A DNA stretch of 64,000 bases from Candidatus Enterousia sp. (GCA_045634865.1 JAZRBB010000008.1:14407-78406), one strand, 5' to 3'. Shown: positions 7,976 through 60,124, numbered from the stretch's first letter. Made by a program: numbers and translations. Notes: generated by a model not told the origin, from the sequence alone.

Positions 7976-9943
7976 TTATTTTTTCTTTAGCGGTCCAGGC
8001 ATAAACTTTCCTTGTCCTTTGTTATAATAAAATTCCCCGTTTATCATATCATACAAGCATGGCACATTATTTTTTGCGTCCATTACAGGAATAAACCAAC
8101 GAACACGACGGCCATTTTGGAAAATTTCGCACTGATATAACCTGCAAGTTGTCCCAGCTGTGAAAATCCCACGATCGTTTAATCCAAATAAAAATATATT
8201 GTTTGATGCACTGAAAGATTGTTTTACGAACGACACATTCTTGGCATCGACAAACCCACCCTTGTTACCATTCCCACTATCTATAAAAATATTAATCCGT
8301 ATTGAACCAACATTCAATGGATGCCCACAATCTATAACTTGGGCTTCTGTCCCATATTCAATATAAACAGTTTCTGGATTACCATCATGAAAAACCTCTA
8401 AGGCGAACGAATTATATTGATCGTTATCCCGTCCACCGAACAGAAATGTGTTTCTACCAGATTTTGGTTGCACTTTGATATCAATTCTTGTGTCATCGTC
8501 TGGCGCCAAGTCTGTATCAATGTATTGAGTGCCCGAAGATTCAATATATTCAAGTTCTATATACCGCTTGTGATTATCAAAACCACCCAAATTAAGCATA
8601 TTTGACAAAACATCCGACCCAGCGGAACCGCCACCAACATCAGAAGATTTTGCCTTTTTATCCCCCGGTATAATATTTTTGATTCCTTGCCACAATATAC
8701 CTAAATCTTTTTTGGCTTTCTGATAATATGCATCAGATATTTTTATCTTGAACAACATATTAATCAACTGTGGAATTGAAGTCATAAACATCGCTAAAAA
8801 CAAGCCAATTAAAACCACCAAAACAATGCTATCATTATGCAAAGCCAATCCATCCATAAAGATTTGTGAATCGTTTTGCGCTATTGCTTGCTGCAAAGCA
8901 CTAACACCATCTACATTCTCAAACAACGCATTTAAAAACATTACTGAAAAAGTTAAAAATACAACGGTCAAAGCGATTCCTAGGACGGCCTGGATAACAT
9001 CGTCTATCATTTGTCGAATCGTTTTTCCGCCCTGCGGAAAAATTGCGAAACCGTCTTCATCAAACAACCAAGCCATTAACATCAATGGCAACATTACCAA
9101 ATCCAAAGATAATTTTATAAACACTTCTAAAAAATATAAAGGTATTGGCAATAAAGCAAAGAAATATAACACCAATATCAACAAACCAACTGCGAATATT
9201 GGAACATTTGGAAACACAGGGACCCCCATAAAAATCTTGTGCATATATTCTGAATTAAACGACATATTCAACATTGTCCAACCAACTGTCATTCCCAGTC
9301 CTGTTATCTGATGAACATTTGCGACTTCACACGCCAATTGATGACGCAATTTTGGTGAAAAAGCGCCATAAGACGACGCGTCTTCTGATATAGTTACGGG
9401 GTCCGCCAGCGCAGTCGCAACCATACATTCAGAAAATTTGTTGTTATCAGATACAATATAATCCAAAGATGTACCAATTGTCATAGCAGGTTCTATTAAA
9501 CCGCTGGTTATAAATCGTGGCAAAGGCACCAACAACAAACCTGTTAGCAAAGACAATTTTATAACATATGTCCCAAAATTTCCCAGCAATTTGGTGCCAT
9601 TTTCTACCTTTGCATTGAAAAAACCAGACATTAAACGCCATGCTACTAAAACCGCTAATAGTGTTGCAGAAATTGGTATAACGATTCGTCCCAACGCGCT
9701 GTAAACCCCAGGCAACAGATTAGACATCGAAACCATTATGTCTGAAAATATCTGACACGTCCAACAAGATGAAAAAAAGTCCAAAGCCTGATTTATGTTT
9801 ACTGGTGCGACAGTACGCCAAATGGAAATTCCAATTATGCCAACACCAACTGCTGCCCCACCTATGACAAATGGTGTAACCGCGCCAACTGACAAAGGCA
9901 TAGCCATAACAAAACCCATTAAAAATTTTTTTAGCCACTTCAT
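7976..9943 (-). CDS. VirB6/TrbL-like T4SS inner-membrane protein (paralogue A) with C-terminal lectin/LamG-like domain
   Basis: Polytopic core with CWTC motif and VirB6-like LEVFIKLSLDLVMLPLMLMAWLF segment; soluble tail starting YIELEYIESSGTQYIDT. Start placed at MKWLKK (9943). Confidence 0.7.
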   Translation of the reverse strand: MKWLKKFLMGFVMAMPLSVGAVTPFVIGGAAVGVGIIGISIWRTVAPVNINQALDFFSSCWTCQIFSDIMVSMSNLLPGVYSALGRIVIPISATLLAVLVAWRLMSGFFNAKVENGTKLLGNFGTYVIKLSLLTGLLLVPLPRFITSGLIEPAMTIGTSLDYIVSDNNKFSECMVATALADPVTISEDASSYGAFSPKLRHQLACEVANVHQITGLGMTVGWTMLNMSFNSEYMHKIFMGVPVFPNVPIFAVGLLILVLYFFALLPIPLYFLEVFIKLSLDLVMLPLMLMAWLFDEDGFAIFPQGGKTIRQMIDDVIQAVLGIALTVVFLTFSVMFLNALFENVDGVSALQQAIAQNDSQIFMDGLALHNDSIVLVVLIGLFLAMFMTSIPQLINMLFKIKISDAYYQKAKKDLGILWQGIKNIIPGDKKAKSSDVGGGSAGSDVLSNMLNLGGFDNHKRYIELEYIESSGTQYIDTDLAPDDDTRIDIKVQPKSGRNTFLFGGRDNDQYNSFALEVFHDGNPETVYIEYGTEAQVIDCGHPLNVGSIRINIFIDSGNGNKGGFVDAKNVSFVKQSFSASNNIFLFGLNDRGIFTAGTTCRLYQCEIFQNGRRVRWFIPVMDAKNNVPCLYDMINGEFYYNKGQGKFMPGPLKKK

Positions 9944-10012
9944 AATTTTAATTATACCATATTTTGTAATAAATGTGATATAATTCAATATGTAAAAAAT
10001 AATAAAGAGAGA

Positions 10013-11272
10013 ATGCGCACATTAAAACCCGCTTTGTGTCGGTTGTTTGGTCGTATCCCGATGTTGTTCGGGCTGGTTTTATTTTGTTCTTTGATACCAG
10101 AATCTGCACATGCAGAATCCAGTGTGGTTGATGCTTTTAATCTTGCGCCCTTTGTGCCGTTGGTTCTTGAAACAATGATGAATATCGCAACATCATTGTA
10201 TAAATATTTTGTTGGTAATGGGACAGGACTGATTTATATTTTGATTTATGCATTCTTGGGATTTTATTTGGCATTGTATGCTTTTAAAATGTTTATCCCA
10301 AAAGATTGGTTATCTTTTCTTGGCTTTACCCCGGGCGATAGTATGTGGGATAATGTAAATGCTTGGACCGTAACAGAAAATGTTCTGAAACCTTGTTTGC
10401 GCGCAATTATTGCAGGGGCCGTACTTTTACAAATAAAACCAGTATATGTCACAGAAGTGTTGGTTAACCCATTTCTGGAATTTGGCGCAATTTATACTGA
10501 CAGCATTTTAACGACAGTAAACCCATCTTCATCAAATGCTGTGGGCGCACCAACATGTCCACCGTCTATCGCAGAAAAAGGATGGATTTCTGAAAGTAGT
10601 TGCGACTTTTTAATTCAACCTGTTTATACAATTTCCAAAGAAAACAATCGTGTTATTGAATACGGCTTTGACTTATTGAAACAGGGTTTTACAGGTATGT
10701 TGACTGTAATCCCGCGTGGGGGGCAAGATTTACTAAATATCATAACAGGTATTGTTTTGATTGCATCATTCGTGGCATCAAATTTATTTATGGCTCTGCT
10801 GATAATTCAGGGAATATTTGATTTTTGTTTGGCCTTGATTATGTATCCGTTCAAAGTGTTAACATGGGTTGCAAAAAAATCTGATAAATGGTTTGATGTG
10901 TTACCAGTATTTGATCAAATAATAAACGCACTAAAAAAATTGGTTATCACAATGATTGCGTGTGCGTTTATATTGTGCATAAACATAGCAATAGTTCATG
11001 CTTTGTTTAATTGGTCTTCACCAATATTATCTGGTGTTGCAGACGCCTCAAACAGTTTTGGGCAACATTCAATATTGTGGATTTCTGCTATTTTGACATT
11101 CTTCTTGATGCGCGCCATTTTCAATATGACACGCGAAAGACTGGAAAGATATTCTGGGGTATCTCATAACACATACAACGATGCCATCGCAACCGGAAAA
11201 AGAACATGGGAAAAATTGAAAGCAACGCCAAGTGTAATACAAAACATCTGGAATGGGGTAAAGAAGAAATAA
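10013..11272 (+). CDS. VirB6/TrbL-like membrane protein (paralogue B)
   Basis: Signal-like N-terminus, TM bundle, periplasmic loop with a Cys pair, and IQGIFDFCLALIMYPFKVLTW core segment. Confidence 0.7.
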   Translation: MRTLKPALCRLFGRIPMLFGLVLFCSLIPESAHAESSVVDAFNLAPFVPLVLETMMNIATSLYKYFVGNGTGLIYILIYAFLGFYLALYAFKMFIPKDWLSFLGFTPGDSMWDNVNAWTVTENVLKPCLRAIIAGAVLLQIKPVYVTEVLVNPFLEFGAIYTDSILTTVNPSSSNAVGAPTCPPSIAEKGWISESSCDFLIQPVYTISKENNRVIEYGFDLLKQGFTGMLTVIPRGGQDLLNIITGIVLIASFVASNLFMALLIIQGIFDFCLALIMYPFKVLTWVAKKSDKWFDVLPVFDQIINALKKLVITMIACAFILCINIAIVHALFNWSSPILSGVADASNSFGQHSILWISAILTFFLMRAIFNMTRERLERYSGVSHNTYNDAIATGKRTWEKLKATPSVIQNIWNGVKKK

Positions 11273-11273
11273 A

Positions 11274-12479
11274 ATGCAAAACATAGCGAACACTTTGATA
11301 GACAATGTTGCACAATGTTGGACATGTCCAATATTCGACAATTTGTTTGCTATAGTCTCTGACACTGCTGGCGCTTTGTATGACAGGTTAAGTTTTTTCA
11401 GCGTCGTTATTTTTAGTGTTTTATTTGCTTTTTATGTTTTGAACGTAGTTTGGCAAAATATAAAATCAGGTATAAATGATCCGACTTATCAAAAATCATT
11501 AAAACCGGTTTTAATAAAATCTGTGATGGTATTATCTTTGCTCGCTTTGGGATTAAATGTCCCAAGGTTTATTTCAACTATAACATTTGAACCTGTCGCA
11601 GAAATAACATTAGGTTTTTCTGAAACAATGTTGCCCGATGATTACAGAATTCCAGATGATTATTCTGCAATAAAGTTAAATGATAACGGATTCTTTAACC
11701 CACAGTTGCGTGATACAATTGTTAAAATTTTACAAACAAGTGTTGCTAGTTTTCAAGTGTTCATAAAACTTGGCATATCAATCATAGATGCATCATTTTC
11801 ATTCCCATCAAAAATTGAAGTATGGTTTATTATAAAACGTTTGTTGATATTGTTCATTGGATTATTCATTACATATAAGTTTGCACAATTCTTCATACAA
11901 TATTCGTTATGCTTTATGGATATAATATTTGCTATGGCAATGTTCGCGTTCTTTTTTCCTCTATCATTGGTGTTGTTTATATTTCGTGGCGCAGCCAGTT
12001 TGCCAGGCTGGCTGAAAAATCTTGGCAAAGACCTTGGTGGCGGGCAAATAAAAAAATTGATTAATGCAATTGTATCTGTTGTGGCTACAATTTTTACATA
12101 CACAATTATATTGCAACTGGTTCGTGGTTATCTTAACGGTTATGAATTAAATGCCGAATCCATTGAAAATACAACTCAGTCTATACTGAATTTCAACTTT
12201 GATAATCCTAATGTTGTTCAGTTGACATTTTTGGGTTCCATTGTTTTAATTTTTATCCTAAACTTTTTCAAGGGGAAAATACCAGATATAACAAACGAAA
12301 TCATGTCTACATTTGGATTATCTCAGGAAAATAAAATGTCAACAGAAATGGGTAAAAGTGTATTAGCATTGACCAACAATATTGCAAATCAAACAAAGAA
12401 ACTAATCAGTATTGCTGCAAACAAAGCAATAGAAATTGCTAAAAACGCAACCAAATCTGACACAAAGGATAAAAAATAA
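11274..12479 (+). CDS. VirB6/TrbL-like membrane protein (paralogue C)
   Basis: CWTCPIF motif; GFFNPQLRD matches GAFSPKLRH of paralogue A; MDIIFAMAMFAFFFPLSLVLF core. Confidence 0.7.
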   Translation: MQNIANTLIDNVAQCWTCPIFDNLFAIVSDTAGALYDRLSFFSVVIFSVLFAFYVLNVVWQNIKSGINDPTYQKSLKPVLIKSVMVLSLLALGLNVPRFISTITFEPVAEITLGFSETMLPDDYRIPDDYSAIKLNDNGFFNPQLRDTIVKILQTSVASFQVFIKLGISIIDASFSFPSKIEVWFIIKRLLILFIGLFITYKFAQFFIQYSLCFMDIIFAMAMFAFFFPLSLVLFIFRGAASLPGWLKNLGKDLGGGQIKKLINAIVSVVATIFTYTIILQLVRGYLNGYELNAESIENTTQSILNFNFDNPNVVQLTFLGSIVLIFILNFFKGKIPDITNEIMSTFGLSQENKMSTEMGKSVLALTNNIANQTKKLISIAANKAIEIAKNATKSDTKDKK

Positions 12480-12484
12480 TAAAT

Positions 12485-13930
12485 ATGGCATATGCTTGGC
12501 TTATATCTTGGTTGATAAAAATTTTAAGTGCTGTTACAGCACTTGGGGTTGGTATTTGGTATCTAAGTTCTTCTATTAATGGTGCATCTTTATCCTATAC
12601 CAGCGTCAGTAATTTTATGCAACAAATCGGTGTCCAGAATGGTGATATTGCATCTGCAAATGGATGTTTCTTGTGTGGATATATTGCAGATTTATTTGAT
12701 GTTATTGGTCGCGCCACAGAAATGTTTTGGACCGGCATAGTTAAATACCTGTGGATATTGATGGCTGTTGGTTTTGGGATATTTATCATTTTGCATACTG
12801 TGTCATACATTCATGAACAAGCAGCATCTAAAGATATCAAAGATTTATCCGGCAACGAACCAAAACTTGATTTCCAAAAATGGTTTACCAAAGTTTGGAA
12901 AACAGGATTACGCGTCATTATCGCAGGTGCTTTGATTGGCGCATTAAATTGGTCTGGAACAACCGCATTGAAAACAATAACAAATATCACAGTGACACCG
13001 GTTATGTACGTTGGAACAACACTGTCTTTGGCTGTGACAGGCGTTATCAGCGACGCACAATGCGATGTTTCTTTAGATTCAGAATCATCACAAAATGTTT
13101 TGACACCCATATTAAAACCATTTATGTGTGTTATGGGTAATTTGAACACAGTAATGCTGGCTGGTGCAGGTGGTGGATTTGCTTTGATGAATTATTCTTG
13201 GCTTGGGCTGGGTGGCGGTCTATTTACTTGGCTGGCAGGACTTGCTTTGGTTTTAATATTTTTGGCAATCGGGTTTGATTTGGTATTTCAGGTATTAAAT
13301 GTCATTTTCAAATTAATCTTTATTATCGTATTTATGCCGTTTTTCATAGCAGCATCTGCATTTGAAGAAGTTTGGAAAATCGCTAAAAAAGCGCCAGAGG
13401 CCGCTATAAACATATTGATTGATTCTGCTGTCAGCATAATAAAAATTGGTGTAAAAATATCTTTAATCTATGCTGTCGTGTATTTTTCAGCGGACAGTTT
13501 TTATCCAGGGCCAACGGATGGTTTTACAACTATTATGCCACCAATGTTTGGACAAATCGCACCTAAAAATTCTGATGCACAAACTATGTCGGTAATGGCA
13601 GTATTTTCAGAATGTGAAAAAGTCGCTTTGATTGATGGCGAAATGGATAAAGATAAATTCGTGACTTGCTTTAATGCACAAAAAAGTGTTGTTACAAAAA
13701 AATATCCTGATGCTTTTGATTTTATGGACGACGGTTTTTATTTCTTGATGTTCATGATTGGTGTTGCTTTTCTGTATTTGTGGATTATTTCACCAGAAAT
13801 CAACAAAATAATTGGTAGTCCTGCAAAAGAAGATTTTAATTATGGTACTTGGGTAAAAAATTTTGGTGTGATGGTTTACAAAGCGCCAGCAAAAATATTT
13901 GATGCAATCAAAGGTAATATGAAAAAGTAA
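12485..13930 (+). CDS. VirB6/TrbL-like membrane protein (paralogue D)
   Basis: GCFLCGYI motif; NVIFKLIFIIVFMPFFIAASAF core; extra Cys-paired loop near the C-terminus. Confidence 0.7.
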   Translation: MAYAWLISWLIKILSAVTALGVGIWYLSSSINGASLSYTSVSNFMQQIGVQNGDIASANGCFLCGYIADLFDVIGRATEMFWTGIVKYLWILMAVGFGIFIILHTVSYIHEQAASKDIKDLSGNEPKLDFQKWFTKVWKTGLRVIIAGALIGALNWSGTTALKTITNITVTPVMYVGTTLSLAVTGVISDAQCDVSLDSESSQNVLTPILKPFMCVMGNLNTVMLAGAGGGFALMNYSWLGLGGGLFTWLAGLALVLIFLAIGFDLVFQVLNVIFKLIFIIVFMPFFIAASAFEEVWKIAKKAPEAAINILIDSAVSIIKIGVKISLIYAVVYFSADSFYPGPTDGFTTIMPPMFGQIAPKNSDAQTMSVMAVFSECEKVALIDGEMDKDKFVTCFNAQKSVVTKKYPDAFDFMDDGFYFLMFMIGVAFLYLWIISPEINKIIGSPAKEDFNYGTWVKNFGVMVYKAPAKIFDAIKGNMKK

Positions 13931-13941
13931 AAGGAAACATC

Positions 13942-15282
13942 TTGATGCGAATTGTGAAATTATTATCGAGATTTATGATTTGCATATTATGCATATTTTG
14001 CATAAGCGGTGTTTATGGCGAAGAAAATTTACCCACTGAACAAGATTCAATACCTGAACAAATTGTTGACCAAGAAATAATATCTGAACAAGAACAGAAT
14101 TCAGAACAACCCACAGAACAAAAAAAATGGCTAGACACAAACGATATAACAACATTTAATAAAAACATTTCCAGGGATTTTGATAAATTCGAACCAAAAA
14201 TCGATTTAAATCCCGATACTTTTGTACCAATTGAAGCAAAACTGGGTTTAATGTTGATGAAGGCTTTATCAGTAATTGATACTGTTTTACAAATGTCATT
14301 GGTTCAATTTGCAATTATATTTTTATTGTTTATGTATATTTTTTGGGTTGGACTGGAAGCATATAAACTTATTCGCGATTCAGGCGATTACAAGACCGCT
14401 TTGTATAACATATTCAAGCAAGGGATTACCATCGCCATATGGATTATTATATTAAACTATGGTCCAATAAAGATTTTTTCGATGATTGTGTCTCCAATTT
14501 TAGCACTGGGAACATATTTGTCTGACTTTATATTGGGGGCTGTTGCAGAAACTTACAAAGTCAATATTCCTGACACATGCGCCGCAATTCACAATTATGT
14601 GAATGCAGATAAATCATTAGATTTATTGGTTGATGCAGATACCGCTGCCAATATAATGTGTCTGCCATCACGTATATCTGTATATTTTTATCATGCGACA
14701 GCAACGGGTTTTCAATGGATAAAATACGGGCTGGGCCACAGTATAACGATGATAGTTGTTGGTATTGTATCAATTGTTATATTTGTAAAATGTATATTCA
14801 AATATGCGTTTATGGCATTGGGTATCGCTACAAGTTTATTTTTAACATTGATGATGTTGCCTTTTACAGCATTGGCTGAATCTATGCCATCAAATTCAGA
14901 AAAGAATATTGCAGGTCAATTATTCAATGGTCTATTAAAAGTATTTAATACGCAAAAACTAACTAGTGTATTGTTCGTATTCGTAAATGCTGCGGTGTAT
15001 TTTGTCAGTTTATCAATTGTGATTGCAATATGCGCTGCATTACTGGCAAATATTATATCTTTGGACAGCAACGGTGGATATTCGGTCGGTTCTGTGATAA
15101 CGACTATCTTGGCTGGTTATTTGGTTTTATATTTTGCAAATCAGACTGATAGTTTAGCGAAAAAAATTGGTGGCAATGTCGATAACACGTATACCAAACA
15201 ATTCCAAGATGCAGCAAAAACCGTATGGGGCAACGCAAAAAATCTTGCAACAAAATTAGCACAAACCTGGATAAAAAAGTAA
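13942..15282 (+). CDS. VirB6/TrbL-like membrane protein (paralogue E)
   Basis: Signal peptide, acidic E/Q linker, TM bundle, and ALGIATSLFLTLMMLPFTALAE core. Start is TTG 13942 or ATG 13945. Confidence 0.7.
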   Translation: MMRIVKLLSRFMICILCIFCISGVYGEENLPTEQDSIPEQIVDQEIISEQEQNSEQPTEQKKWLDTNDITTFNKNISRDFDKFEPKIDLNPDTFVPIEAKLGLMLMKALSVIDTVLQMSLVQFAIIFLLFMYIFWVGLEAYKLIRDSGDYKTALYNIFKQGITIAIWIIILNYGPIKIFSMIVSPILALGTYLSDFILGAVAETYKVNIPDTCAAIHNYVNADKSLDLLVDADTAANIMCLPSRISVYFYHATATGFQWIKYGLGHSITMIVVGIVSIVIFVKCIFKYAFMALGIATSLFLTLMMLPFTALAESMPSNSEKNIAGQLFNGLLKVFNTQKLTSVLFVFVNAAVYFVSLSIVIAICAALLANIISLDSNGGYSVGSVITTILAGYLVLYFANQTDSLAKKIGGNVDNTYTKQFQDAAKTVWGNAKNLATKLAQTWIKK

Positions 15283-18205: not shown

Positions 18206-20038
18206 TTACTCGTTAAAATATACTGATGCGTCGTGCAGATTATATATTGTTCCGTTATAGTCCGCTTTCAGTTTATGTATTGATGAACTGTTTATCGTAT
18301 AATCATGTTCGCTGTTTGGTGTTGCGTGTATGTAATATGTATGTTCAGGATCAACCTGAATTACCAACGCATGTTCTGTGCGCTTGGTTTCTGCAACACA
18401 TACTTGCGAATTGTTGCCCAAATGGAAGTATTTACCAGAATCACAATGAAATCCCCAATCTGAATACAACACTTGATTACCAGTTAAAACATCGTTTGCA
18501 CCGATTACTGTGCCAGAACCGTTTTCCCAATTATCCAGAACTGTATCAGGTTTTGTTGGGCTGTATGACGGCAAATTATATCCAGAGCCATTGTTCCCGT
18601 CATAATATACATCTTCTTTTTTCAATAGCGTATTATTATCACTGTCAATAAAGGTCACCTGGGCATAACATGTGTCGTTTGTAGAATCATAAAGCGGATA
18701 TTCCGCGGAACATTGTGTACATGATTTACGGTTTTCCCAATACGATTCAAACCCAGTTATATATTGTGTTGTACCAGCGGGGCACGATGTAGCCATACTA
18801 TTTGTGCCATGAAATATTTGATACATTTCATCAGTGGCCTCTGTGCTTTTATCAATACCCGCAAACAATTCTGGTGGAACAGAACCTGACAAACGAGAAT
18901 CGTTATAAAAGGTTCTGTAAAACATACTTGTTGCTGGTTTACCGATAATGCCCGAGAACAGGTCACCTGGTATTTGTCCCTTCAAATAAAAACAAGAATA
19001 AAATGTATTAGTAAACATACTATTAGCGGGACGACCCTGTATTCCAGAAAATAAATTTCCAGGTATTGTCCCATTGATTTTTGAACATGTAGAAAAAGTC
19101 CCGTTAAACATAGATGTTGCCGGGGCACCAGATATACCAGCAAATAAAGTTGGGGGTATCGCATATTTCATGCCCGGATTGTTCGGATCATCTATATCTG
19201 TTCCTGTTAAATTAGAACATTTATAAAATGTACTACTAAACATGCTTGCCGCGGGTTTGCCAGATAAACCACTGAACAAATCACCAGGTATTGTCCCTGT
19301 TAAACCCGAACATCCGTTAAAAGCGGCATAAAACATATATGTTGCAGGGGCACCAGACAGTCCAGAAAACAAAGTTGGCGGTATCGCATATTTCATTCCG
19401 GGGTTATTTGGATCGTCTATGTCTGTCCCACTTAAAGATGTACAACCAGCAAAAATGGCACGAAACATATACCCTTGCCCCTTGCCTGTAATACCAGAAA
19501 ACAAATCTGCAGGTATCGGCCCAATTAAATTGGAACATTTGTAAAATAATGTATAAAAACGTGGCTGATATGCAGATGTGCTACCAGTACCAATTGTTGG
19601 GAATATAGCCCCGAGCGAGCCAGATATTTGTTTTATGTTATCGTATGTGTTATTATGTGTAAAATCTGACGTGTTACCAAACAAAATAGCAGCCATATTT
19701 GCCGCATTTCCACCAACCGTTGTGTACCCCGTTGCACGTCCACCAAATTTAATTATGTATTCGTTGGCACTGGCGTAATTATGGGTGTATTCGGTTATTG
19801 TTGTGCCAGTGCGGTTTATCATTTGAACATTACCGTCACCCCAATCAATGTAAAATGTCCCCTTGGCAGACATATTAAATACGAATTTGTTTGTGTCGTT
19901 GGTTGTGGTGATTTGGAATTTGTTTTCTATGCAATTACCATCGTATTCAAATTCATTGCTTTGGCATGTGATGGCGTATGCAGAACCCGTTGCATAAACC
20001 AGCAACACACACAAAATCTGCATCAATCGTTTTAACAT
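18206..20038 (-). CDS. Surface protein with PKD-like domain, LRR-like (BspA/DUF285-type) repeats, Cys-rich module, InlB B-repeat-like domain and Cys-led C-terminal domain
   Basis: Signal peptide; YIDWGDG; about 8 copies of P-x-x-LF-S/A-G-x-x-G-x-PA-x-x-MF-x-x-TF-x-x-C; CPAG...CTQC. Start at MLKRL with a GGGG RBS. Confidence 0.8.
   Translation of the reverse strand: MLKRLMQILCVLLVYATGSAYAITCQSNEFEYDGNCIENKFQITTTNDTNKFVFNMSAKGTFYIDWGDGNVQMINRTGTTITEYTHNYASANEYIIKFGGRATGYTTVGGNAANMAAILFGNTSDFTHNNTYDNIKQISGSLGAIFPTIGTGSTSAYQPRFYTLFYKCSNLIGPIPADLFSGITGKGQGYMFRAIFAGCTSLSGTDIDDPNNPGMKYAIPPTLFSGLSGAPATYMFYAAFNGCSGLTGTIPGDLFSGLSGKPAASMFSSTFYKCSNLTGTDIDDPNNPGMKYAIPPTLFAGISGAPATSMFNGTFSTCSKINGTIPGNLFSGIQGRPANSMFTNTFYSCFYLKGQIPGDLFSGIIGKPATSMFYRTFYNDSRLSGSVPPELFAGIDKSTEATDEMYQIFHGTNSMATSCPAGTTQYITGFESYWENRKSCTQCSAEYPLYDSTNDTCYAQVTFIDSDNNTLLKKEDVYYDGNNGSGYNLPSYSPTKPDTVLDNWENGSGTVIGANDVLTGNQVLYSDWGFHCDSGKYFHLGNNSQVCVAETKRTEHALVIQVDPEHTYYIHATPNSEHDYTINSSSIHKLKADYNGTIYNLHDASVYFNE
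19146..19440. repeat. Internal 225-nt-period duplication in the surface-protein gene
   Basis: Blocks starting at 19146 and 19371 both encode GTDIDDPNNPGMKYAIPPTLF, with synonymous differences. Confidence 0.85.
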
Positions 20039-20271
20039 TATTTTCCCCACATACACACCAAAAAATACCGATTTTTTGACGGTTCAGAACTATAAAAAGA
20101 TAATGGATACCATTCACAACCATTCAACCAAGTGAGTTGGAATTTTATCGTCATATACCAACGTCTTTCTATGGATTCTGAATCCCATCAGATGAACGCC
20201 ATCTGATACAAGAATGATAACAAAATGTGATATTTTAATACAAGAAAATTTTTTATTGATTTATCAATTAT

Positions 20272-30434: not shown

Positions 30435-30504
30435 AAGATATGCCAATTATATATGTCTTTAATAATTTTTCAATAATAAAATAAAAAAATTTTTAATCAT
30501 GCTC

Positions 30505-30553
30505 TTGACTTTAAGATATGAAATACATATAATCATTAAAAATTTTAATGATT
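30505..30553 (+). promoter_or_regulatory. Promoter of the marR-RND operon with overlapping palindromic operator
   Basis: TTGACT-17-TATAAT (30505-30533); perfect inverted repeat AATCATTAAAA-A-TTTTAATGATT (30531-30553). Confidence 0.75.
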
Positions 30554-30585
30554 TAGTTTCTGAACAATTAACCAAGGGGGTATCT

Positions 30586-31032
30586 ATGACACATACCGAA
30601 GTGACACAATTGATGGCTGAAAATATGCGTATTATGGGGCGGTTGGCCAATCGTTTACAGCCTTTGTTCGAAGGCTCCAAACAATCGCGTCAGCAAATGA
30701 CAGTTTTGGTTCGTCTGTATTTATCCGGCAAAATCAAACTGAAAGATTTTTCTGCGCGTGAGGTTATTTCTACGGCTAACCTTTGTAGTGTTTTTCGCAA
30801 GTTGGAACAAGATAAATTGGTTGTTCGTTCAACTGACCCAGATGATCATCGTGATACTTGGTATGAAGTTACTAAATCAGGTAAGGTTTTAGCAGAAAAA
30901 ATTATTGATAAATTTATGACTGCGTTGGAATCTCTGTGCAAATGTTTGCCCGAATCTGAACAAGATAGATTGGCAGAAACCAGCAGGACTATAAATGAAA
31001 TATTGAAAAAGATGGAGCAAGCAAATGCGTAA
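30586..31032 (+). CDS. MarR-family transcriptional regulator
   Basis: wHTH with LEQDKLVVRSTDPDDHRDTWYEVTKSG; ATG 30586 has an AAGGGG RBS. Confidence 0.88.
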   Translation: MTHTEVTQLMAENMRIMGRLANRLQPLFEGSKQSRQQMTVLVRLYLSGKIKLKDFSAREVISTANLCSVFRKLEQDKLVVRSTDPDDHRDTWYEVTKSGKVLAEKIIDKFMTALESLCKCLPESEQDRLAETSRTINEILKKMEQANA

Positions 31033-32332
31033 ATTATTATTGTGTGTATTGTCGTGTGTGGCGGTAATCCCAAATGCGTTCGGTATGGATTTGTCGTTAA
31101 ATCAGGCGATTGAAAAAATCGTATCTGAATCTAATGATATTAAACGCGCAGATGCGAATATCAAGAAAGCAAAAGCACAATTAAGTGCTGTAAACGCAAA
31201 CCGTTGGATGTCGATTGATGGCACTGTGTCATATATGAATTTGATAAATGTGAAACGCCCAACCAGTTCGAATGGTGTTGAAATACCGTCTGATATTGGC
31301 GCGATTCTGGGTAGCGTTTTGCCACTTGATGCTATACCGGATAATATTTTTTCAGCAGGTGTGCAAATAACCCAACCTATTTATACTTTTGGTAAAATTG
31401 GAAATGCGGTTGATGCTGTGCATGATGCAATTGATATGTCTAAATCAGCCAAAGATTTAACCATGCGTGAAGTTAAGTATGCGGCGGCTAATTTATATTG
31501 GACTGCAAAAATGACAGATGAAATTGTGTCTGCGTCACAAAGAAATCTGAACAACGCACGTGCTGCGAAAAAGAAACTGACATCGGCAGGACGTGCAAAT
31601 CGCAGCAATTTAATTAAAATAGAATCTGATATTGCGTCCAAAGCAATCAATTTATCTGACGCTGAATTTAATCGTGATACAGCATACAGAATGCTGAAAA
31701 TTATGGCGGGAATTGATGTTGATGAAGATTTAATTTTGGTTGATAATTTTCCAGATAAATTTGCACCACTAAATGCAGGTAAATTAAAATCAAATCCAGA
31801 ATGGGATATTTATCAAAAACAAATTAAAATGTATGAATCGAATGCGTCGTCTAAACGTTCAGGGGCTTATCCAACATTGGCAGCAGTTGGTTCGTATTCT
31901 TTTTATTCTATGGGGCCTGATATGGGACATATGTTTGATAAAGAAGGTTCGCAGTCTGCATATTGGGGCTTGGCTTTGCAGGTTCCGTTGTTTAACGGTG
32001 GAATCCATTCTGCAAATGCAACAATGGAAGCGATGAATGCGGAATCTGCCCGTCAAGATTTGGATAAATCAAAGAAACTGAAAACCGAAGAATATGATAA
32101 CGCAGTAAGTAAGTATAAACATTTATGTAATAATTTGGGTAAGTTGAAAAAAGCGCACTCGCTGGCCCAGCAAGCATATGATGTGTCTGCAAAACGTTTT
32201 GCGACCGGTCAAACCTCTGCTGTTGAATTGGCTGATGTTTCTGGGGCTTTATATCAAATGGATATGGCTTTGTTAAATGCGAAATACAATATTTTAATGT
32301 CTGCAGAATCGGTTAAGAAATTAGGTGAATAA
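31025..32332 (+). CDS. tolC: TolC-family outer membrane channel
   Basis: Signal peptide, LSLNQAI, ITQPIYTFG, LQVPLFNGG, RFATGQTSAVEL. Confidence 0.85.
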   Translation: MRKLLLCVLSCVAVIPNAFGMDLSLNQAIEKIVSESNDIKRADANIKKAKAQLSAVNANRWMSIDGTVSYMNLINVKRPTSSNGVEIPSDIGAILGSVLPLDAIPDNIFSAGVQITQPIYTFGKIGNAVDAVHDAIDMSKSAKDLTMREVKYAAANLYWTAKMTDEIVSASQRNLNNARAAKKKLTSAGRANRSNLIKIESDIASKAINLSDAEFNRDTAYRMLKIMAGIDVDEDLILVDNFPDKFAPLNAGKLKSNPEWDIYQKQIKMYESNASSKRSGAYPTLAAVGSYSFYSMGPDMGHMFDKEGSQSAYWGLALQVPLFNGGIHSANATMEAMNAESARQDLDKSKKLKTEEYDNAVSKYKHLCNNLGKLKKAHSLAQQAYDVSAKRFATGQTSAVELADVSGALYQMDMALLNAKYNILMSAESVKKLGE

Positions 32333-32333
32333 A

Positions 32334-32948
32334 ATGACAACTGAAAAAATAGAAAATTTTGTAAAAAAATTGAAAACAAAAAAATCAAAAAATATCATTT
32401 ATATATTTTTGATGGTTGTGTTGATTGGTTGTTTTGCTTATCGCTTTTATAACGTGTTCACAGAAAGAAATCGCACAGTGTTTAATATCATGCGTAATAA
32501 TATTGAAAACGGAATACCGGTTGAAACATTGAAAATATCTGAAACAAATGGTGTGTTATATCAACCGTTAAACATAAAAAATAATCGCGCATATGTATCG
32601 GGGGCGCGTGTCAATATGTTCAAGGTTGGTCAAAAAATTGGTAATTGTAAAATCGTTTCTGTATCAAAAAATATAGATTTATATTCTGGTATGCATGTTA
32701 TAAAAACATCTGGTTGTCCAGACGGTTTGCAATATGTGGAACACAGGCAATATGGTTTCTATGTGCCGGTTTCTGCTGTATATGGCAATAATGTATATGT
32801 TGTAAATGGTGATAAATCAAGTGTTCGTGATATAGTCATAGAAGCGCGCGATTCACAAAATGTTTTGGTAAAATCTGGATTGAAAAATGGTGATATTGTG
32901 ATTTTATCAAAGGTTCAAGATAACGAAAAAATTAAAATTGTAAAGTAG
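32334..32948 (+). CDS. Miniature periplasmic adaptor (membrane-fusion-like) protein
   Basis: Position between tolC and RND; N-terminal TM; VPVSAV...VYVV and VKSGLKNGDIVI are typical MFP C-terminal motifs; only about 204 aa. Confidence 0.7.
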   Translation: MTTEKIENFVKKLKTKKSKNIIYIFLMVVLIGCFAYRFYNVFTERNRTVFNIMRNNIENGIPVETLKISETNGVLYQPLNIKNNRAYVSGARVNMFKVGQKIGNCKIVSVSKNIDLYSGMHVIKTSGCPDGLQYVEHRQYGFYVPVSAVYGNNVYVVNGDKSSVRDIVIEARDSQNVLVKSGLKNGDIVILSKVQDNEKIKIVK

Positions 32949-32967
32949 TGAAACAAAGGGATATAAA

Positions 32968-35900: not shown

Positions 35901-35985
35901 GTCTTTGATATGGACGTTCTGTCTGACACCCGCATTGTTCTTTGTAATGGAAAAGTTGCGTGTAAAATTGAGTCGCAAGAAATAA
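32968..35985 (+). CDS. RND-family (AcrB-like) transporter with non-canonical TM4/TM10
   Basis: FIRRPV, PSVDFP, YPGASS, 12-TM RND layout with two periplasmic loops; TM4 VSNAI and TM10 VNNNI. Confidence 0.92.
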   Translation: MLKFFIRRPVTTIMFVLFFVVLGLVSFPKMNIERSPSVDFPYVTVTFVYPGASSSELESQVVKKAENAMSEVAGVKKITSQIYENSAYVISEFNLGVNVDDKANEVKAKIDGLANEFPSDLKQPVIAKLNPLQQAVLDIVIQGADAKDLEKYIKDNLSNKITAVRGVASVNTFGGLTRAVRIAMDPDLMAAHGVTINDIVSAIATHNLNVPGGKIETDINSENVRFVGEFQNVKEISDLEITTVEGDTFKLSDVANVRDAARDIEKGARYNGKEVVIMSVVKASDGNAIKISNALRKKMPELQAQLETRFQNATMEIVSDSSLTISQATTDTINSIVLGVIFTIIVLLAFTRNWRSTIIAGVVIPVSLLSGFFLMNGSGFTINTMTLLAYATALGTLVSNAIILIESALSELQAGKTPEQAAEEGTRKVAIPVLAGVGTNVVVFLPLAFMGGIVGQFMLQFGMTVVYLTLLSLLFSFTLTPMMIAKLLRFNQKNKKDIQQVQKHNNSTRLHSWYEYQYKRPWIVILGAVGILILSARLMGYVGNEFSPSTDANEITITARAPMGSLYAKSESIAKIIEERVSNIPEVKSTTVKIGDKGLQNISVKVTLVDVEKRKISDKQLAQQILPTLADIPDAEIQIRAGENMSSAGISSDLVLNVFGDDDDKRNMYANQIIANINKIESVQSVVLAQQAPAKEIRFIPDNEKMNFWGVKNANAGVALRTALFGNDTHKYKEHGDEYPIVLEFDKQFKNKSMFDSVYVSSQKGMVALSQLGTLESAPASSNIYRLDKNRITEIDINIGKSTIGPVQAEIQKYLDTINWEPGYSASFAGMSEIQSESTGEIAQAFLLATILTFMLLAAIMNSFIHPFTIATSIITSFAGVFIVLFLSGASMNVGAMLAFIMLVGLVVNNNILVLEPTVARVQRGENAYKVLWQELMDKKRMIWMTTIAVVAGMLPQLWSNDGLKVAMGAVMIGGMCASLIWTFCLTPALFFVMEKLRVKLSRKK

Positions 35986-43150: not shown

Positions 43151-43909
43151 ATGACCCGATACAGAATTGATGTTGAATATGATGGCACAGATTTAATTGG
43201 TTGGCAGATAAATCGCCAAGGGCCGTCTGTGCAATCTTTATTGCAAGATGCGATTTATAGATTCTGTGGTGAAAATGTGACTGTGTTTTCAGCAGGTCGT
43301 ACGGATGCTGGCGTTCATGCAATTGCTATGCCTGCGCATTTTGATTTGGATAAAGATTGGGATGCTGAAACTGTAATGCGTGCAATCAATTTTTATTTGG
43401 TAAATGAACCTGTGTCGGTATTAAGATGTGAAAAAGTTGATGATGATTTTCATGCACGTTTCAGTTGTAAAAAACGTGTTTATAAATATGTCGTCGTAAA
43501 TCGGTCTGCGCCAGTTGTGTTGAATAAAAATCGTGTATGGTGGGTACCGCAAAAACTGGACATTGATTTAATGCGTGCACAATCACAAAAGTTAGTTGGC
43601 AAACATGATTTTACTTCGTTTCGTGCTGCACAATGTCAGGCAAAAAGTCCGATAAAGACTTTGGATTCTTGCACTATCACACAAAATGGTGACGAAATAG
43701 TTTTGGAATTTGCTGCACGTTCTTTTCTGCATCACCAGGTTCGCAATATGGTTGGAACATTGATTGATATTGCTTCTGGCAAGCCTTATGACATTGATGA
43801 AATTTTTGCAAAACAAGAGCGTGGCGCTGCCGGTGTGAATGCGCCTGCGTGCGGATTGTATTTTGTCAAAGGCCTTTATGCCACAGACGATGATTCGAAA
43901 TCTTTCTGA
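43151..43909 (+). CDS. truA: tRNA pseudouridine(38-40) synthase
   Basis: EYDGT...GWQ, AGRTDAGVHA, FHARFS, GKHDFTSFR, FLHHQVRNMVG, APACGL. Confidence 0.96.
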   Translation: MTRYRIDVEYDGTDLIGWQINRQGPSVQSLLQDAIYRFCGENVTVFSAGRTDAGVHAIAMPAHFDLDKDWDAETVMRAINFYLVNEPVSVLRCEKVDDDFHARFSCKKRVYKYVVVNRSAPVVLNKNRVWWVPQKLDIDLMRAQSQKLVGKHDFTSFRAAQCQAKSPIKTLDSCTITQNGDEIVLEFAARSFLHHQVRNMVGTLIDIASGKPYDIDEIFAKQERGAAGVNAPACGLYFVKGLYATDDDSKSF

Positions 43910-45827: not shown

Positions 45828-45873
45828 ACCCAGATTATAAGATTTTATCTGTTTATACCGCAACCGATATTTT

Positions 45874-54848: not shown

Positions 54849-54915
54849 AATGAAACCTTTGCGTATATTATTATATTCTGATTTATTCCCTCTATCCATA
54901 AATCAGAACACCATT

Positions 54916-55480: not shown

Positions 55481-57922
55481 TTATTCCATTGTTATCGGTG
55501 GGAAGCAATCACCACCAGTATCTGGACAACAATTGAATCCTTGTTCACCCATATCTGTATAGGTTTCACCTGTGCAACAACCATTTGCATCAGGGGCAGA
55601 ACCATCGTCGCATGTTAATACCGCTTCTTCTGGTGCAGCGCTTGCAGGCTTAGCAAATGGGTTTAATATCGTTTCGCCATCATCTGCATATTGTAAACCC
55701 AATACTTCTTGGTTATATGCTTTTTGTTGTTCTGTGGTGCCAGTTTTATCCCATGATTTAGTCGCATCGTTATATTGGGTTCCGCCATATTTTTGTTCCG
55801 CGGCCGCTTCCACACTTGCACTGTATGCAGCGCTTTTTGCGTTATTCTTTGCTTCGTATGTCAAAGATTCGCAGAACATTAATACAGTTCTGTAATCATA
55901 ACCAGATTTCATCCAGTTTCCCGTTGGTTTCAATTTCCCATTCTTTGATTTTGGATCTTCTTCACAGTATTCTTGTAAATCCCATCCACGAACCTGACCA
56001 ATCCAAGATGAATCTTTCGGATTAATTTTGACATTAGCTTTCAAATCGTTCCATTTACGACGTGGGTTGGGTGAGAGTGTTGAAAATTCACATTTTTTAT
56101 TGTTATTACCACAGGATGCAATCAAATCCACAGGTGAATACACATTTATACGTGTTCCCGCTGGAATCGAAAATGGCGGTACAGTATTATTTATTGCATC
56201 AAAAACCAATTTGTTAGTGATTTTATTCCATTGATTTATTATTTCTTGTTTAGCCATTTCAGATGAACGAATTGTCCCAGATTGAACAACTGTATTGTTA
56301 TCCAGGTTTATTTGATTCACAAAAGTATCAGCGATTGGCGCAATTAAATTGACGGCGGCTGGTACCATTGCTGTCAATATTGGCATAACCATTTGTTCCA
56401 CATAATCTGTACTGCCACGACCTGGGACCCCAACACGACCCTGGGCATCGCCAGAATATGGGTCTTGGCCACCATCAAAATTAAATTCAACGCCATCTGG
56501 ACGAATAAACTGATACCATTTAATATTCATACGACCAAAAGATTGATAAGGTCCAGGCAATTCACCATCCAAATATCCCATCAACAACGTTCCTGTGGGA
56601 ATGATAATTGTTCGGCCATTATCTGAATATACATTTCTGTCCACTGTGGCACGCACAGGAATACTGTGATTTTTTGACGAATCACACTCACCATTTGTGC
56701 AACCATAAACACTAGCATCTGCACGAACTTCTGAAACAATGGTTGCAGGAATCGGCTTGAACTGACGCAATATAAAACTTCTGTCGTACGGTTTGGAAGA
56801 CACAACACTTTCGCCATCTTGTGAAGAACCACGATATTTATCTTCATCTTCTTCTGTGTTCCAGCCAGCTTCTTCGCTTAATTTTTTCATGCCGCCACTG
56901 CTCCACACCGCATTTTCAAATTGACCATTTGATGCGACTGCAGATGTACCAATTGGTGCAGATAAATTCGGTAAAGTCAAACCACGATTTTTTATGTTTC
57001 TGTATCCAATATGGTCTGCATCAGTCCCGATTCTTGAACCATCTTTCAATGATGTTATCACACCTGTTGACCAATCATATTTACCTGTTGGATTGGAACA
57101 ATCTTTGTCTGAAAATGGGTAAAAATAATTTGCGCCCCCAGATGGTTTTATCCAACCAATTTGTGTCCCAGATTGATTATACCCCGGAATCGCAAAATCA
57201 GAACATTTTTCAGGTGGCAACATAAATTCAGGCTCTGGTTCTGGTTCAGCAAACGCAACAGCCGGTGCAACCATTTCAATCGTTTTTGGTGCTTCTGGTT
57301 CTGGCTCCGGTTCTGGTTCTGGTTCAGGTTCAACCACAGGTTCGGGCTCAGGCTCTGGTTCAGGCTCAACCACTGGTTCTGATTCTTTCACAGGTGTTGG
57401 TTCTGGTTCTATTTCTACTATTGGCTCTGGTTTTGCAAAAGCACTGAATGTGACCGGTATTTTTTTTGTTTGTTTATTTGTTTCTTCTTCTGGTAAATAA
57501 TAAGAAATCACCAAAGACGCGTTTGTTTTAGATTGCTTTGCGCTTGGGGTATATTCCACAATCATTGTACATTCATCAGAAACCAGACCAGAACAATCAT
57601 TCACATCAATTGTCCAACTGTCTTTTGCTTTATCAATTTGTGCTTCTGCGATATTAACGTCGCCAGTAACAATAATTTTCAATTTTTTCTGCAAAGTTTC
57701 GCCTGCCTGGACATCGATGAAGTCTAACTGTTTTGGATCAAAAGCCCACTCTATGGGTTTTGTTTCGACAACTGTTTTTTCCTTTTTACCACCATAATAT
57801 TTTTGCAGTACCAAAGTTAACAAAATTATCACGACAACAAAAGCAGCAACCAACAACAACCATTGAATATGCTTTGGTGTTGTTGTACGAAATTCTTCAA
57901 ATTGCTTTTTTATACTTTTCAT
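55481..57922 (-). CDS. virB10: VirB10/TrbI-like T4SS core protein with extra Ig-like, Pro-Glu linker and Cys-rich domains
   Basis: N-terminal TM; [57 protein letters not shown] and [10 protein letters not shown] are TrbI-type motifs. Confidence 0.88.
57230..57435. repeat. Degenerate hexamer repeats encoding the (PE)n linker of VirB10
   Basis: GGTTCT/GGCTCT/GGTTCA runs encoding [25 protein letters not shown]. Confidence 0.85.
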
Positions 57923-57928
57923 AGTTTT

Positions 57929-59428
57929 TTACTGTATTCTGATTACATGACAACTTGAACCACTGAACTTTAATAACTGATCACACAACTTTTGCGCTGT
58001 ATCTATGTCTGGCAAAGGTCCGATACGTAAACGATACAGACGCGCGGTTGCAGAATCAGAGCCCAATTCACCAACGCCATGTTCATCTACGGCATAGAAC
58101 ACACTGTTTTTATATGGTGTTAAAATACCAACGCCATCATCACCGCTGAACTTTGCCAATAAATCAGCCCAATAATCATCTAATGCCTTGACTGAAGTAT
58201 CAGACTTCAATTCCACAGCAACACCGACCTGATTACTGGTTATCAATGGGATATTCGATTGTGGCAAATATGCACCGGCAGTCATTCTGGCATTTGGTGC
58301 AACATTGATATTTGGGTTCGTATCAACAACAGCCATACCAGCATTATTAACACCATATGCGCCATACCCAGCCATAGGTTGATTTCCAATTATTATCGGA
58401 CTGGCAGTATAATCATTTATGCCAGCATTTATAGCATACTGGTCATCAGTATAAGCAATCGTATTCAGAGATTGATTCGCCATCAAAGATTGTGCGACAT
58501 TAGCCTCTGCCAAAGCCATAACAGATGCAGTATCAGCAATCAAGAAAGGCTTTTCACGTTTTTTGATGCATACAATTCTTTGCCCGCTGCGCAAAATCAT
58601 GTCACCCACAGCCTCTACAATCAATAAACGACCGTCTTCGCCGTCTGTGCGGAAACCGACAGGACTTTCGCCACCTTCGACCAACAAAGATACCACAGGA
58701 CGCTGGGTCATAGAAATAACCTTGTCCCCAAAATCGATGTATGTGAATATACGGTCGCGCCATACGCGTTCTGGTGCAATTACATAATCATCAGGATTTG
58801 GCACAAATATATCCAAATCAAAACGGAATTCAGACGGGTCAATTTTCATTGTTTTTATCCAACCGTAATCTTCGCCATCAACACCAATCGTTGATGAAGC
58901 CGAAGATTGTTTTGTTGCAAATACAGAACCCATTTTCCCAGATGATGTTGGTGCCATAGCGCCACCAGAAACAGCACCGCCATTACCCAAAGAAATATCA
59001 ACTTGGGAATAAGCAATCTCACTAGAATTTACGGGATACGCACGCAAATAAAATGTATATATGTTCCCCGATTTACCAGTCACTATAAGATTTGTATCGC
59101 TACCATTGTTTTCAGCAGAAGGTTGAATATACATTGTCCGACTACCTTTCGATGTTTGTATATCAAATAAGGTTTCATCGCCACGCATTATCTCTTCAAT
59201 CGTTTCACCGTTCGGTAACGTCACCAAAGTCGCCATGCCAGAACGTGTTTTGATCGGCAGAACAGTTCCCTTGGACCAAACAAGATTTGCATATCCCGGC
59301 TGGGAAGAACCCGCAGCCATATTTGCATTTGGATTATCCCACGCAACCTGATAATCAGCAAATGCAGGAAATGCGCAAAGCATAACTGATAACAAAGAAA
59401 TATTTAATTTGTTTTTTAAGCAAGTCAT
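57929..59428 (-). CDS. virB9: VirB9/TrbG-like T4SS outer-membrane core protein with C-terminal SPOR domain
   Basis: Signal peptide; TNLIVTGKSGNIYTFYL and PERVWRDRIFTYIDF (VirB9-type); C-terminal LYRLRIGPLPDIDTAQKLCDQL...CHVI (SPOR). Confidence 0.85.
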   Translation of the reverse strand: MTCLKNKLNISLLSVMLCAFPAFADYQVAWDNPNANMAAGSSQPGYANLVWSKGTVLPIKTRSGMATLVTLPNGETIEEIMRGDETLFDIQTSKGSRTMYIQPSAENNGSDTNLIVTGKSGNIYTFYLRAYPVNSSEIAYSQVDISLGNGGAVSGGAMAPTSSGKMGSVFATKQSSASSTIGVDGEDYGWIKTMKIDPSEFRFDLDIFVPNPDDYVIAPERVWRDRIFTYIDFGDKVISMTQRPVVSLLVEGGESPVGFRTDGEDGRLLIVEAVGDMILRSGQRIVCIKKREKPFLIADTASVMALAEANVAQSLMANQSLNTIAYTDDQYAINAGINDYTASPIIIGNQPMAGYGAYGVNNAGMAVVDTNPNINVAPNARMTAGAYLPQSNIPLITSNQVGVAVELKSDTSVKALDDYWADLLAKFSGDDGVGILTPYKNSVFYAVDEHGVGELGSDSATARLYRLRIGPLPDIDTAQKLCDQLLKFSGSSCHVIRIQ

Positions 59429-59431: not shown

Positions 59432-60124
59432 TTATATTCCTTCCTTGTAAAAATCTGTATCTGATAACGGATCTGTTTCTTTTGCGTCCAAAACTTTGTA
59501 TTCTGTGACCTGAATACCAAGTGGATTATTACGCAAATCTTTCAGATAATTCAGTATTTTATCCGAACTATTATCCAGATAAGATTGTATTGCTATACCT
59601 ATCTTATAACTTTTTGGACCGATCTGTCTACCACTATTTTGATCAAAACAAGTTCTATCAAAACCAACAATGTAACGTTGAGATTTTTTATTAAAGACAA
59701 TATTACCATCGTTGAAATTAACCGAACAAACCATGTTGTACACACGATTTGTAGTCACTTCATTGTATGTATCAGTACTCCTGAACTGTGCAGACACAGT
59801 AGGTGAAGACCAAGGCTTTACAATGCGATTCCATCTTTCAATGGTGGCAGACTTTTGTGGTTCGAGAGTGTTCCTGGCAATTATATATGTTCGGATAAAA
59901 CCTTTGATGTATTCTGATTGGAAATCTTTATCTGTTGGGTTTTGTTTGTCCAATACATAATTCACATTGCGACTTTGGTTTTGCAGGAAAAAAATCTCCG
60001 GTCGTGTAAGCGGGGTCATCTGATACAAAGTGAACACCAAAACAGCCAATATCGCAATCGATGCTGCTAATACGAACATTAATGCTCTTGATAACAAAAC
60101 CGGCGGTTTCACGACCTTTGACAC
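59432..60124 (-). CDS. virB8: VirB8-like T4SS inner-membrane protein
   Basis: Single N-terminal TM ending MTPL, FIRTYIIARNT, VKPWSSPTV, NPLGIQVTEY; first gene of the B8-B9-B10 order. Confidence 0.82.
   Translation of the reverse strand: MSKVVKPPVLLSRALMFVLAASIAILAVLVFTLYQMTPLTRPEIFFLQNQSRNVNYVLDKQNPTDKDFQSEYIKGFIRTYIIARNTLEPQKSATIERWNRIVKPWSSPTVSAQFRSTDTYNEVTTNRVYNMVCSVNFNDGNIVFNKKSQRYIVGFDRTCFDQNSGRQIGPKSYKIGIAIQSYLDNSSDKILNYLKDLRNNPLGIQVTEYKVLDAKETDPLSDTDFYKEGI

Follow-up and report, generated by a model that had tools for sequence, protein, structure and literature searches.

What do five adjacent membrane-protein genes, all annotated as hypothetical, contribute to the reduced genome of a gut alphaproteobacterium? 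The genes, here called A to E, occupy positions 7976-15282 of a 64,000-nucleotide stretch of Candidatus Enterousia sp. DNA (GCA_045634865.1 JAZRBB010000008.1:14407-78406, hereafter the window), with A on the minus strand and B to E on the plus strand. An initial annotation had read them as five divergent VirB6/TrbL-like paralogues that might build a hetero-pentameric stalk in a type IV secretion system (T4SS). The coordinates, the one-plus-four arrangement and the gaps of 1-11 nucleotides that it gave hold, and its central idea survives in a qualified form. By sequence, the five open reading frames (ORFs) are true, old paralogues of one polytopic membrane-protein family; the family is probably a very divergent VirB6/TrbL relative; and we put at roughly 0.6 the probability that its members are VirB6-like subunits of a T4SS that is chromosomal, vertically inherited and encoded in scattered islets.

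Five old paralogues in a fixed set

BLASTP between the window proteins joins A to C (4e-11), B to E (2e-6) and D to E (3e-5). When orthologue-family alignments built from 83 loci were compared pairwise by hhalign, the profiles paired with probabilities of 97.6% (A-C), 97.0% (B-E), 95.2% (A-E), 94.8% (C-E), 92.8% (D-E), 88.5% (A-D), 86.4% (A-B) and 74% (C-D), the pairs B-C and B-D being linked solely through E. These alignments are collinear throughout, over 180-340 columns, and merge into a single common plan in which motif residues at equivalent positions are 100% conserved inside each family: a Pro ahead of the central loop, followed five residues on by a Gly (A P167/G172, B P153/G158, D P172/G177; P185 in E and P107 in C); an invariant Gly within the long run of hydrophobic residues (A G268, B G246, C G196, D G252, E G274); the invariant Pro of a '[ML]-x-P-[FL]' motif (A P301, B P279, C P229, D P285, E P307); and a G-[FW] motif. 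The BLASTP links, the profile matches of 74-98% and the invariant Pro, Gly and Cys motifs thus bear out the divergent paralogues of the initial annotation, and paralogy and conservation together rule out that the ORFs are unrelated or due to chance. Hydropathy gives 5-7 hydrophobic segments per protein, and the basic tail ascribed to most of the proteins is present, as a C-terminal KK tail, in all five; the Cys-containing loop ascribed to all of them was found, as a Cys pair, in A, B, D and E. Signal-type N-termini are recognizable in A, B, D and E, and an N-terminal CxxC is restricted to A, C and D, B and E carrying signal peptides instead, so that the paralogues sort by these sequence features into a 3+2 pattern.

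D is the most conserved paralogue (52-97% identity across species), with more than 600 homologues at 60-95% identity, none of which has a Pfam domain; when one genome per species was scanned, 229 stretches contained a D relative, and 80 distinct loci among them were kept. Named loci belong to Candidatus Enterousia or to uncultured gut or rumen Alphaproteobacteria, the closest being UBA1218 at 97%; some D-bearing assemblies are labelled 'Rickettsiales bacterium', and the NCBI placement is 'Alphaproteobacteria incertae sedis'. GTDB assigns these genomes to an order separate from Rickettsiales, Rs-D84, whose members have genomes of 0.75-1.0 Mb, lack the tricarboxylic acid cycle, a respiratory chain and the standard transporters for sugars, amino acids and peptides, encode numerous hypothetical membrane proteins and occur widely in the guts of humans, ruminants, horses, chickens and termites (PMC12306168). 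The arrangement A- B+ C+ D+ E+ is kept in 72 of the 83 loci, the rest being interrupted by contig ends, and in 22 more complete metagenomic loci; the roughly 100 complete loci in total hold exactly one copy each of A, B, C, D and E, with no loss or gain.

A deep lineage (L091-L094), in which D is just 28% identical to its Enterousia counterpart, carries all five genes in the sequence A, B, C, D, E along a single strand, amid lepA, rbfA, an FtsE/FtsX-like ABC pair, nrdD, DUF218 and an acyltransferase gene, and each is a clear orthologue of one Enterousia paralogue. One-to-one orthologues in a different order and context place the duplications before the split of the two lineages, in keeping with the old duplications proposed at the outset, and, taken with the housekeeping context and the set fixed in about 100 complete loci, they support the vertical inheritance that had likewise been claimed. 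A conjugation module borne by a mobile element is ruled out by that same context, the lack of relaxase or integrase nearby and the conserved synteny. In the deep lineage E is followed by a gene for a 185-residue protein (L091:11300-11857, also in L092 and L093) that has a signal peptide, is anchored in the membrane at its C-terminus and carries a thioredoxin-like C-P-H-C motif. It matches no Pfam family, the window encodes no homologue of it, and it may serve the Cys-rich loops as their own disulfide oxidoreductase.

Within the window the plus-strand genes are separated by 1 (B/C), 5 (C/D) and 11 (D/E) nucleotides, and the AT-rich divergent gap of about 70 nucleotides that had been noted between A and B matches a 69-nucleotide spacer. 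The spacer region offers A an extended -10-like site (9979 to 9951, minus strand), and B is preceded by an AGAGAGA ribosome-binding site; because promoter-like matches there do not exceed shuffled-sequence expectation, it is the layout alone that suggests a divergent promoter.

Remote resemblance to VirB6 and a divergent T4SS operon

AlphaFold2 models of D (predicted local distance difference test, pLDDT, 69.6; predicted template modelling score, pTM, 0.65) and E (pLDDT 73.9, pTM 0.64) are all-helical, and several of the helices span 30-50 residues. Searched with Foldseek against 350,542 PDB chains, the E model has R388 TrwI/VirB6 chains at all of ranks 1-8 (E 1.1e-3 to 9e-2, probability 0.96-1.00, target-normalised template modelling (TM) score 0.41-0.49), led by 8rtd_L (E 1.1e-3, probability 1.00). 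For the D model, TrwI chains are the sole matches with a probability above 0.7 (8rt9_F 0.99, 8rtd_L 0.99, 7o3v_G/F 0.9), and all the remaining ones, transporters and an oxidase included, stay at or below 0.21. A chain check established that 7o3v_F is TrwI, which disposes of TrwJ/VirB5 as the matched protein. The models of D and E thus resemble the TrwI/VirB6 fold with moderate strength, and the similarity is best called remote, not a tight superposition, because the TM score is below 0.5 and the root mean square deviation is large.

Sequence profiles add a weaker signal. Against a VirB6 profile of 127 sequences (seven diverse plasmid VirB6 proteins and 120 PF04610-positive homologues), only paralogue C gives a match, residues 219-351 aligning with TrwI 171-275 (P=1.2e-3, weak, hhalign probability 15-40%) in a way that pairs FFFPL with GPLF, W with W and QIP with QLP. 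Its score of 32.9 is higher than that of all 60 block-shuffled VirB6 profile controls (maximum 28.7), and with the profiles cut into N- and C-terminal halves a score came from family C alone, in its C-terminal half. The merged A-E profile places the first hydrophobic helix on TrwI 27-72 (P=8.7e-4), a weak and local match that is collinear with that of C; A, B, D and E are tied to the VirB6 profile by transitivity, through the A-C and C-E paralogy. VirB6/TrbL proteins (PF04610; TrwI of R388, PDB 7O3V, 8RT9, 8RTD) are, like A-E, polytopic, all-helical inner-membrane proteins, and TrwI shares with A-E the order of its features: a first hydrophobic helix, a central loop, a hydrophobic block with conserved Pro and Trp, and '(Q/K)-(I/L)-P' before the tail. 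Unlike VirB6, A-E show no similarity at the level of hidden Markov models (HMMs), are longer (~400-480 versus ~300-340 residues), have conserved disulfide-type Cys pairs and, in three, CxxC, and come as five fixed paralogues instead of one gene, outside a virB operon and with no VirB5 or entry-exclusion gene alongside.

A virB8-virB9-virB10 operon lies in the same window, on the minus strand at 55481-60124, about 40 kb from the five-gene cluster, between tRNA-Trp, secE, nusG and rplKAJL on one side and yidC on the other. The initial annotation had stated that no relaxase, virB4, virB11, virD4 or integrase is nearby; this is correct, none being present within 10 kb of the cluster, but the operon had been overlooked. 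VirB8, VirB9 and VirB10 score above their Pfam gathering scores and reach about a quarter of the NCBIfam cut-offs, and VirB10 also weakly matches the ComB10 model. These homologies indicate that a T4SS is present in the genome and that the whole system is unusually divergent, and divergence on this scale makes it plausible that HMMs would overlook a VirB6. In the usual place of virB11/virD4, virB10 is followed by two small unannotated ORFs (54504-54899 and 54916-55266).

Domain additions provide a further parallel. In three loci E is about 630 residues long (L124, 11488-13365; L126, 4367-6277; L129, 5271-7199) and carries, after a Gly/Ser-rich linker, a C-terminal GTPase domain of about 200 residues of the MMR_HSR1/FeoB_N type (Pfam 38-40 bits versus a cut-off of 21.9), with G1 GxxGKS/T, DxPG and (N/T)KxD motifs; a GTPase fused there argues for a cytoplasmic C-terminus. 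VirB6, as in the topology of the A. tumefaciens protein, also has its C-terminus in the cytoplasm. A, 428-516 residues long in most genomes, is present in the window as an extended variant, whose added domain (YIELEYIESSGTQYIDTD..., four Cys) is confined to the window's clade (L055, L005, L004, L019, L031), has no Pfam or PHROG match and recurs inside other ORFs of two relatives (L022:3496-4077, L006:17981-18511). With a core plus a large hydrophilic C-terminal domain, 230 residues in A and 200 in E, the two variants fit the description of the 'extended VirB6' class, which they recall (PMC12857230).

A proposed scattered machine and its rivals

Several results weigh against assigning the five proteins to a T4SS. 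Scans with Pfam, NCBIfam and PHROGs found no match for any of them, the Pfam and NCBIfam VirB6/TrbL models giving none at E<=1; across 58 E orthologues PF04610 gave none at E<=10 and no Pfam family recurred, so that PF04610, which the initial annotation had named as a check, provides no match at any threshold. Searches of PDB sequences by phmmer and hmmsearch with A and with D, C and E profiles returned nothing, and the E profile retrieved 111 of 1.84 billion representative proteins, every one an E orthologue or fragment, and nothing that would connect E with VirB6 or, at library-wide E-values, with the paralogues. In hhalign, A, B, D and E stay at noise level against the 127-sequence profile (E being indistinguishable from the block-shuffle null), as does TrwI when compared as a single sequence with the profiles of the families, and the global mode was uninformative. 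On the structural side, Foldseek TM scores below 0.5 come with root mean square deviations of 10-16 A, all-helical models hold little 3Di information and model confidence is moderate (pLDDT 70-74). As for gene context, VirB4, VirB11, VirD4, VirB2 and VirB3 were not found within the 64-kb window; tblastn with all R388 T4SS proteins and the window's VirB8, VirB9 and VirB10, run on about 125 loci, detected no T4SS gene closer than 10 kb to the cluster, the sole match being VirB10 in the window, and TrwJ/VirB5 had no match in window or loci; a metagenome scan seeded by the deep-lineage D orthologue returned the Enterousia-type arrangement only and no cluster beside T4SS genes; and the neighbours of the cluster are cell-envelope and housekeeping genes, not T4SS genes. 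The VirB6/TrbL-like identity proposed at the outset is moderately supported by the TrwI fold matches of D and E, the weak profile match of C and the VirB8-VirB9-VirB10 operon in the window, and left unsupported by PF04610 and by a cluster that never adjoins T4SS genes.

That isolation and the missing VirB6 HMM match are also what would be expected if A-E formed a hetero-oligomeric channel or transporter unrelated to T4SSs, for instance one for nutrient uptake that replaces missing transporters, the Foldseek match then reflecting a generic long-helix bundle, as TM scores below 0.5 might suggest. Rs-D84 lacks standard transporters and encodes many hypothetical membrane proteins (PMC12306168), and the E-GTPase fusion (L124, L126, L129) recalls FeoB-like GTPase-gated transporters. 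However, it is TrwI alone that D and E match with high probability, transporter matches (MsbA, TAP, bd oxidase) reaching at most 0.2; C meets VirB6 on its hallmark motifs, above all block-shuffle controls; and the predicted helices of 30-50 residues are far longer than a membrane span. An unrelated channel strikes us as an unlikely, if serious, explanation.

The neighbouring genes suggest another function. In the window murG, ftsW, mraY, PBP1A, suhB and a conserved 170-residue ORF flank the cluster on one side, and uvrD and dnaQ on the other. The 170-residue protein is soluble, matches no family and, at 64-95% identity in 94 loci, exceeds A in conservation; its gene does not adjoin the cluster in the deep lineage, and it is possibly an accessory gene of uncertain membership in the system. 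Adjacency to mraY-ftsW-murG and PBP1A in Enterousia, and to the FtsE/FtsX-like ABC pair, DUF218 and acyltransferase genes in the deep lineage, might denote a membrane complex of envelope biogenesis or cell division, inherited together with cell-wall genes. Yet the neighbours differ by lineage and include the unrelated suhB, rpmE, uvrD, dnaQ, lepA, rbfA and nrdD, and none of the known membrane proteins of divisome or elongasome emerged as similar in fold or sequence; such a complex seems very improbable.

If the VirB6-like reading is accepted, A-E parallel the rvh T4SS of Rickettsiales (4-5 RvhB6) as tandem VirB6-type paralogues that are chromosomal and vertically inherited (PMC11077975, PMC7648143, PMC12857230), and rvh and Rs-D84 are alike in having genes in scattered islets, a reduced genome and some paralogues with extra hydrophilic domains. 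The differences are that A-E belong to the order Rs-D84 and not to Rickettsiales, that no virB3-virB4 precedes the cluster, and that A-E fall well below most RvhB6 in size, go unrecognized as TrbL/VirB6 and number an invariant five. The rvh system has RvhB4, RvhB8 and RvhB9 in duplicate and lacks a VirB5 analogue (PMC11077975); the 64-kb window has one VirB8 and one VirB9, with no duplicates seen in it. Should A-E be strict rvhB6a-e orthologues, Rs-D84 would carry the Rickettsiales rvh system by common descent instead of an independent expansion, as might be argued from the multicopy VirB6-like set, the scattered islets, the lack of a VirB5 match in the window, the label 'Rickettsiales bacterium' on some assemblies and the standing of multicopy RvhB6 as an rvh hallmark (PMC11077975). 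We consider this descent quite doubtful. Rickettsial RvhB6 proteins are recognizable as TrbL/VirB6, unlike A-E, and VirB8 and VirB9 are present in the window as single copies. GTDB, in turn, keeps these genomes in a separate order (PMC12306168).

Resuming the reading of A-E as VirB6-like subunits of a scattered T4SS, we posit that each protein would start in the periplasm, by way of a signal peptide (A, B, D, E) or a short N-tail (C), continue through two hydrophobic helices into a large disulfide-bonded periplasmic loop, and end, after at least three more hydrophobic helices with the invariant Gly and Pro, in a basic cytoplasmic tail. The signal-type N-termini are the reason for placing the N-terminus, the conserved Cys pairs the central loop, and the basic tails the C-terminus. 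The VirB6 of A. tumefaciens has the same layout of periplasmic N-terminus, periplasmic central loop and cytoplasmic C-terminus. The five proteins would assemble, probably as a mixed oligomer, at the center of the machine above a presumed VirB4 ATPase, and the divergent VirB8, VirB9 and VirB10, encoded in a separate islet, would form the outer- and inner-membrane scaffold of the same machine. Its candidate roles are (i) effector delivery into a partner cell or (ii) ComB-type uptake of DNA or nutrients.

How might five subunits be arranged? VirB6 (TrwI), which makes up the base of the T4SS stalk, and DotA are both pentameric (PMC12857230), and a set that always comprises five different subunits is therefore suggestive of a hetero-pentamer, with which the fixed count is consistent. 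In Ehrlichia, four VirB6 paralogues are reported to interact (Bao et al. 2009, as cited in PMC12857230). In its boldest form the proposal would be an obligate 1:1:1:1:1 hetero-pentameric VirB6 stalk of non-interchangeable 3+2 subunits, fixed before the Rs-D84 lineages diverged, in a T4SS that these bacteria, being metabolically dependent, would need for a life on a partner cell, with E gaining its own cytoplasmic GTPase in some lineages; this picture is tentative, and the odds are against its holding in full. In the searchable literature we found no paper that proposes a hetero-pentameric VirB6.

Two other systems invite comparison. The ComB T4SS of H. pylori resembles the window in having virB8-9-10 without adjacent virB11/virD4 and in the weak match of VirB10 to ComB10; ComB systems cooperate with ComEC (PMC12857230), which is also present in the window. 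It differs in having a single ComB6. The ComEC competence channel gene (43866-45935, minus strand) bears on a possible ComB-like DNA uptake by the T4SS. Saccharibacteria (Patescibacteria), symbionts with ultra-small genomes, carry in their T4SS a tandem array of six structurally conserved, sequence-divergent VirB2-like pilins (PMC12857230); unlike in Rs-D84, the multiplied subunit is VirB2, not VirB6, and the cells are monoderm, and the pilins have no homology to A-E.

Multicopy VirB6 in a reduced-genome alphaproteobacterium is of a kind already known, and it is treated as a Rickettsiales signature (PMC11077975). What is new, as far as the searchable literature shows, is the lineage, the divergence, the strict number of five, the CxxC and disulfide features and the GTPase-fused variant; no T4SS in Rs-D84 or Candidatus Enterousia is described there, in agreement with the initial annotation's remark on the lineage. 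A T4SS conserved amid housekeeping genes would point to a life that is partner-dependent, epibiotic or parasitic, as in Rickettsiales or Saccharibacteria, and a second lineage with exactly five paralogues would offer a clean natural test of whether a VirB6 pentamer can comprise five different subunits. The analysis also defines five protein families with hundreds of members each, all annotated as hypothetical and missed by current HMM libraries.

Features and other genes of the window

Table 1. Coordinates of the five paralogues, the T4SS operon and associated features in the window
Feature	Position	Strand	Remarks
Paralogue A	7976..9943	-	ORF extends to 9988 (670 aa); ATG at 9943 is the likeliest start (MKWLKKFL...); signal-like N-terminus, CxxC C75/C78 (670-aa ORF numbering), Cys pair C188/C220, hydrophobic helices, invariant P301 motif
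A C-terminal extension	7976..8668	-	~230 aa, beta-rich, after Gly/Ser linker
Paralogue B	10013..11272	+	419 aa; cleavable-type signal peptide, without CxxC; Cys pair C182/C197; invariant P153, G158, G246, P279
Paralogue C	11274..12479	+	401 aa; shortest; CxxC at residues 15-18; without extra N-terminal helix
Paralogue D	12485..13930	+	481 aa; CxxC C61/C64; Cys pair C193/C215; inserted loop with C377/C395
Paralogue E	13942..15282	+	446 aa; signal peptide; Cys pair C213/C240; paralogy-network hub
A/B divergent intergenic spacer	9944..10012		69 nt, AT-rich; assumes A start at 9943
Conserved ORF, 170 aa	7326..7838	-	directly downstream of A, same strand; no Pfam match
VirB8 homologue	59432..60124	-	PF04335, 45 bits versus gathering score 23
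VirB9/CagX homologue	57929..59428	-	C-terminal SPOR domain
VirB10/TrbI homologue	55481..57922	-	813 aa; Pro/Glu (EP/PE) repeat; Cys-rich C-terminal tail

Three large ORFs of the window, at 18206-20056 (minus), 36734-37705 (plus) and 37702-40857 (plus), encode 616, 323 and 1051 residues and have no significant Pfam or NCBIfam match, the 323-residue ORF making weak contact with a Rad50 model (E 0.002, 16 bits versus a cut-off of 700). Among relatives, ORFs of 730-785 residues without a Pfam match lie near the cluster in L001; such large family-less ORFs, in window and relatives, could encode effectors or surface proteins. An efflux operon at 30499-35985 (plus) comprises genes for MarR, an outer-membrane factor, a 207-residue ORF and AcrB. 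The segment 20315-27551 (minus), with a GC content of 0.32-0.34 as against 0.35-0.40 elsewhere, encodes glycosyltransferases (GT2, GT1 and DXD-type), a hexapeptide acyltransferase and a UDP-GlcNAc 2-epimerase, and is probably a surface polysaccharide locus.

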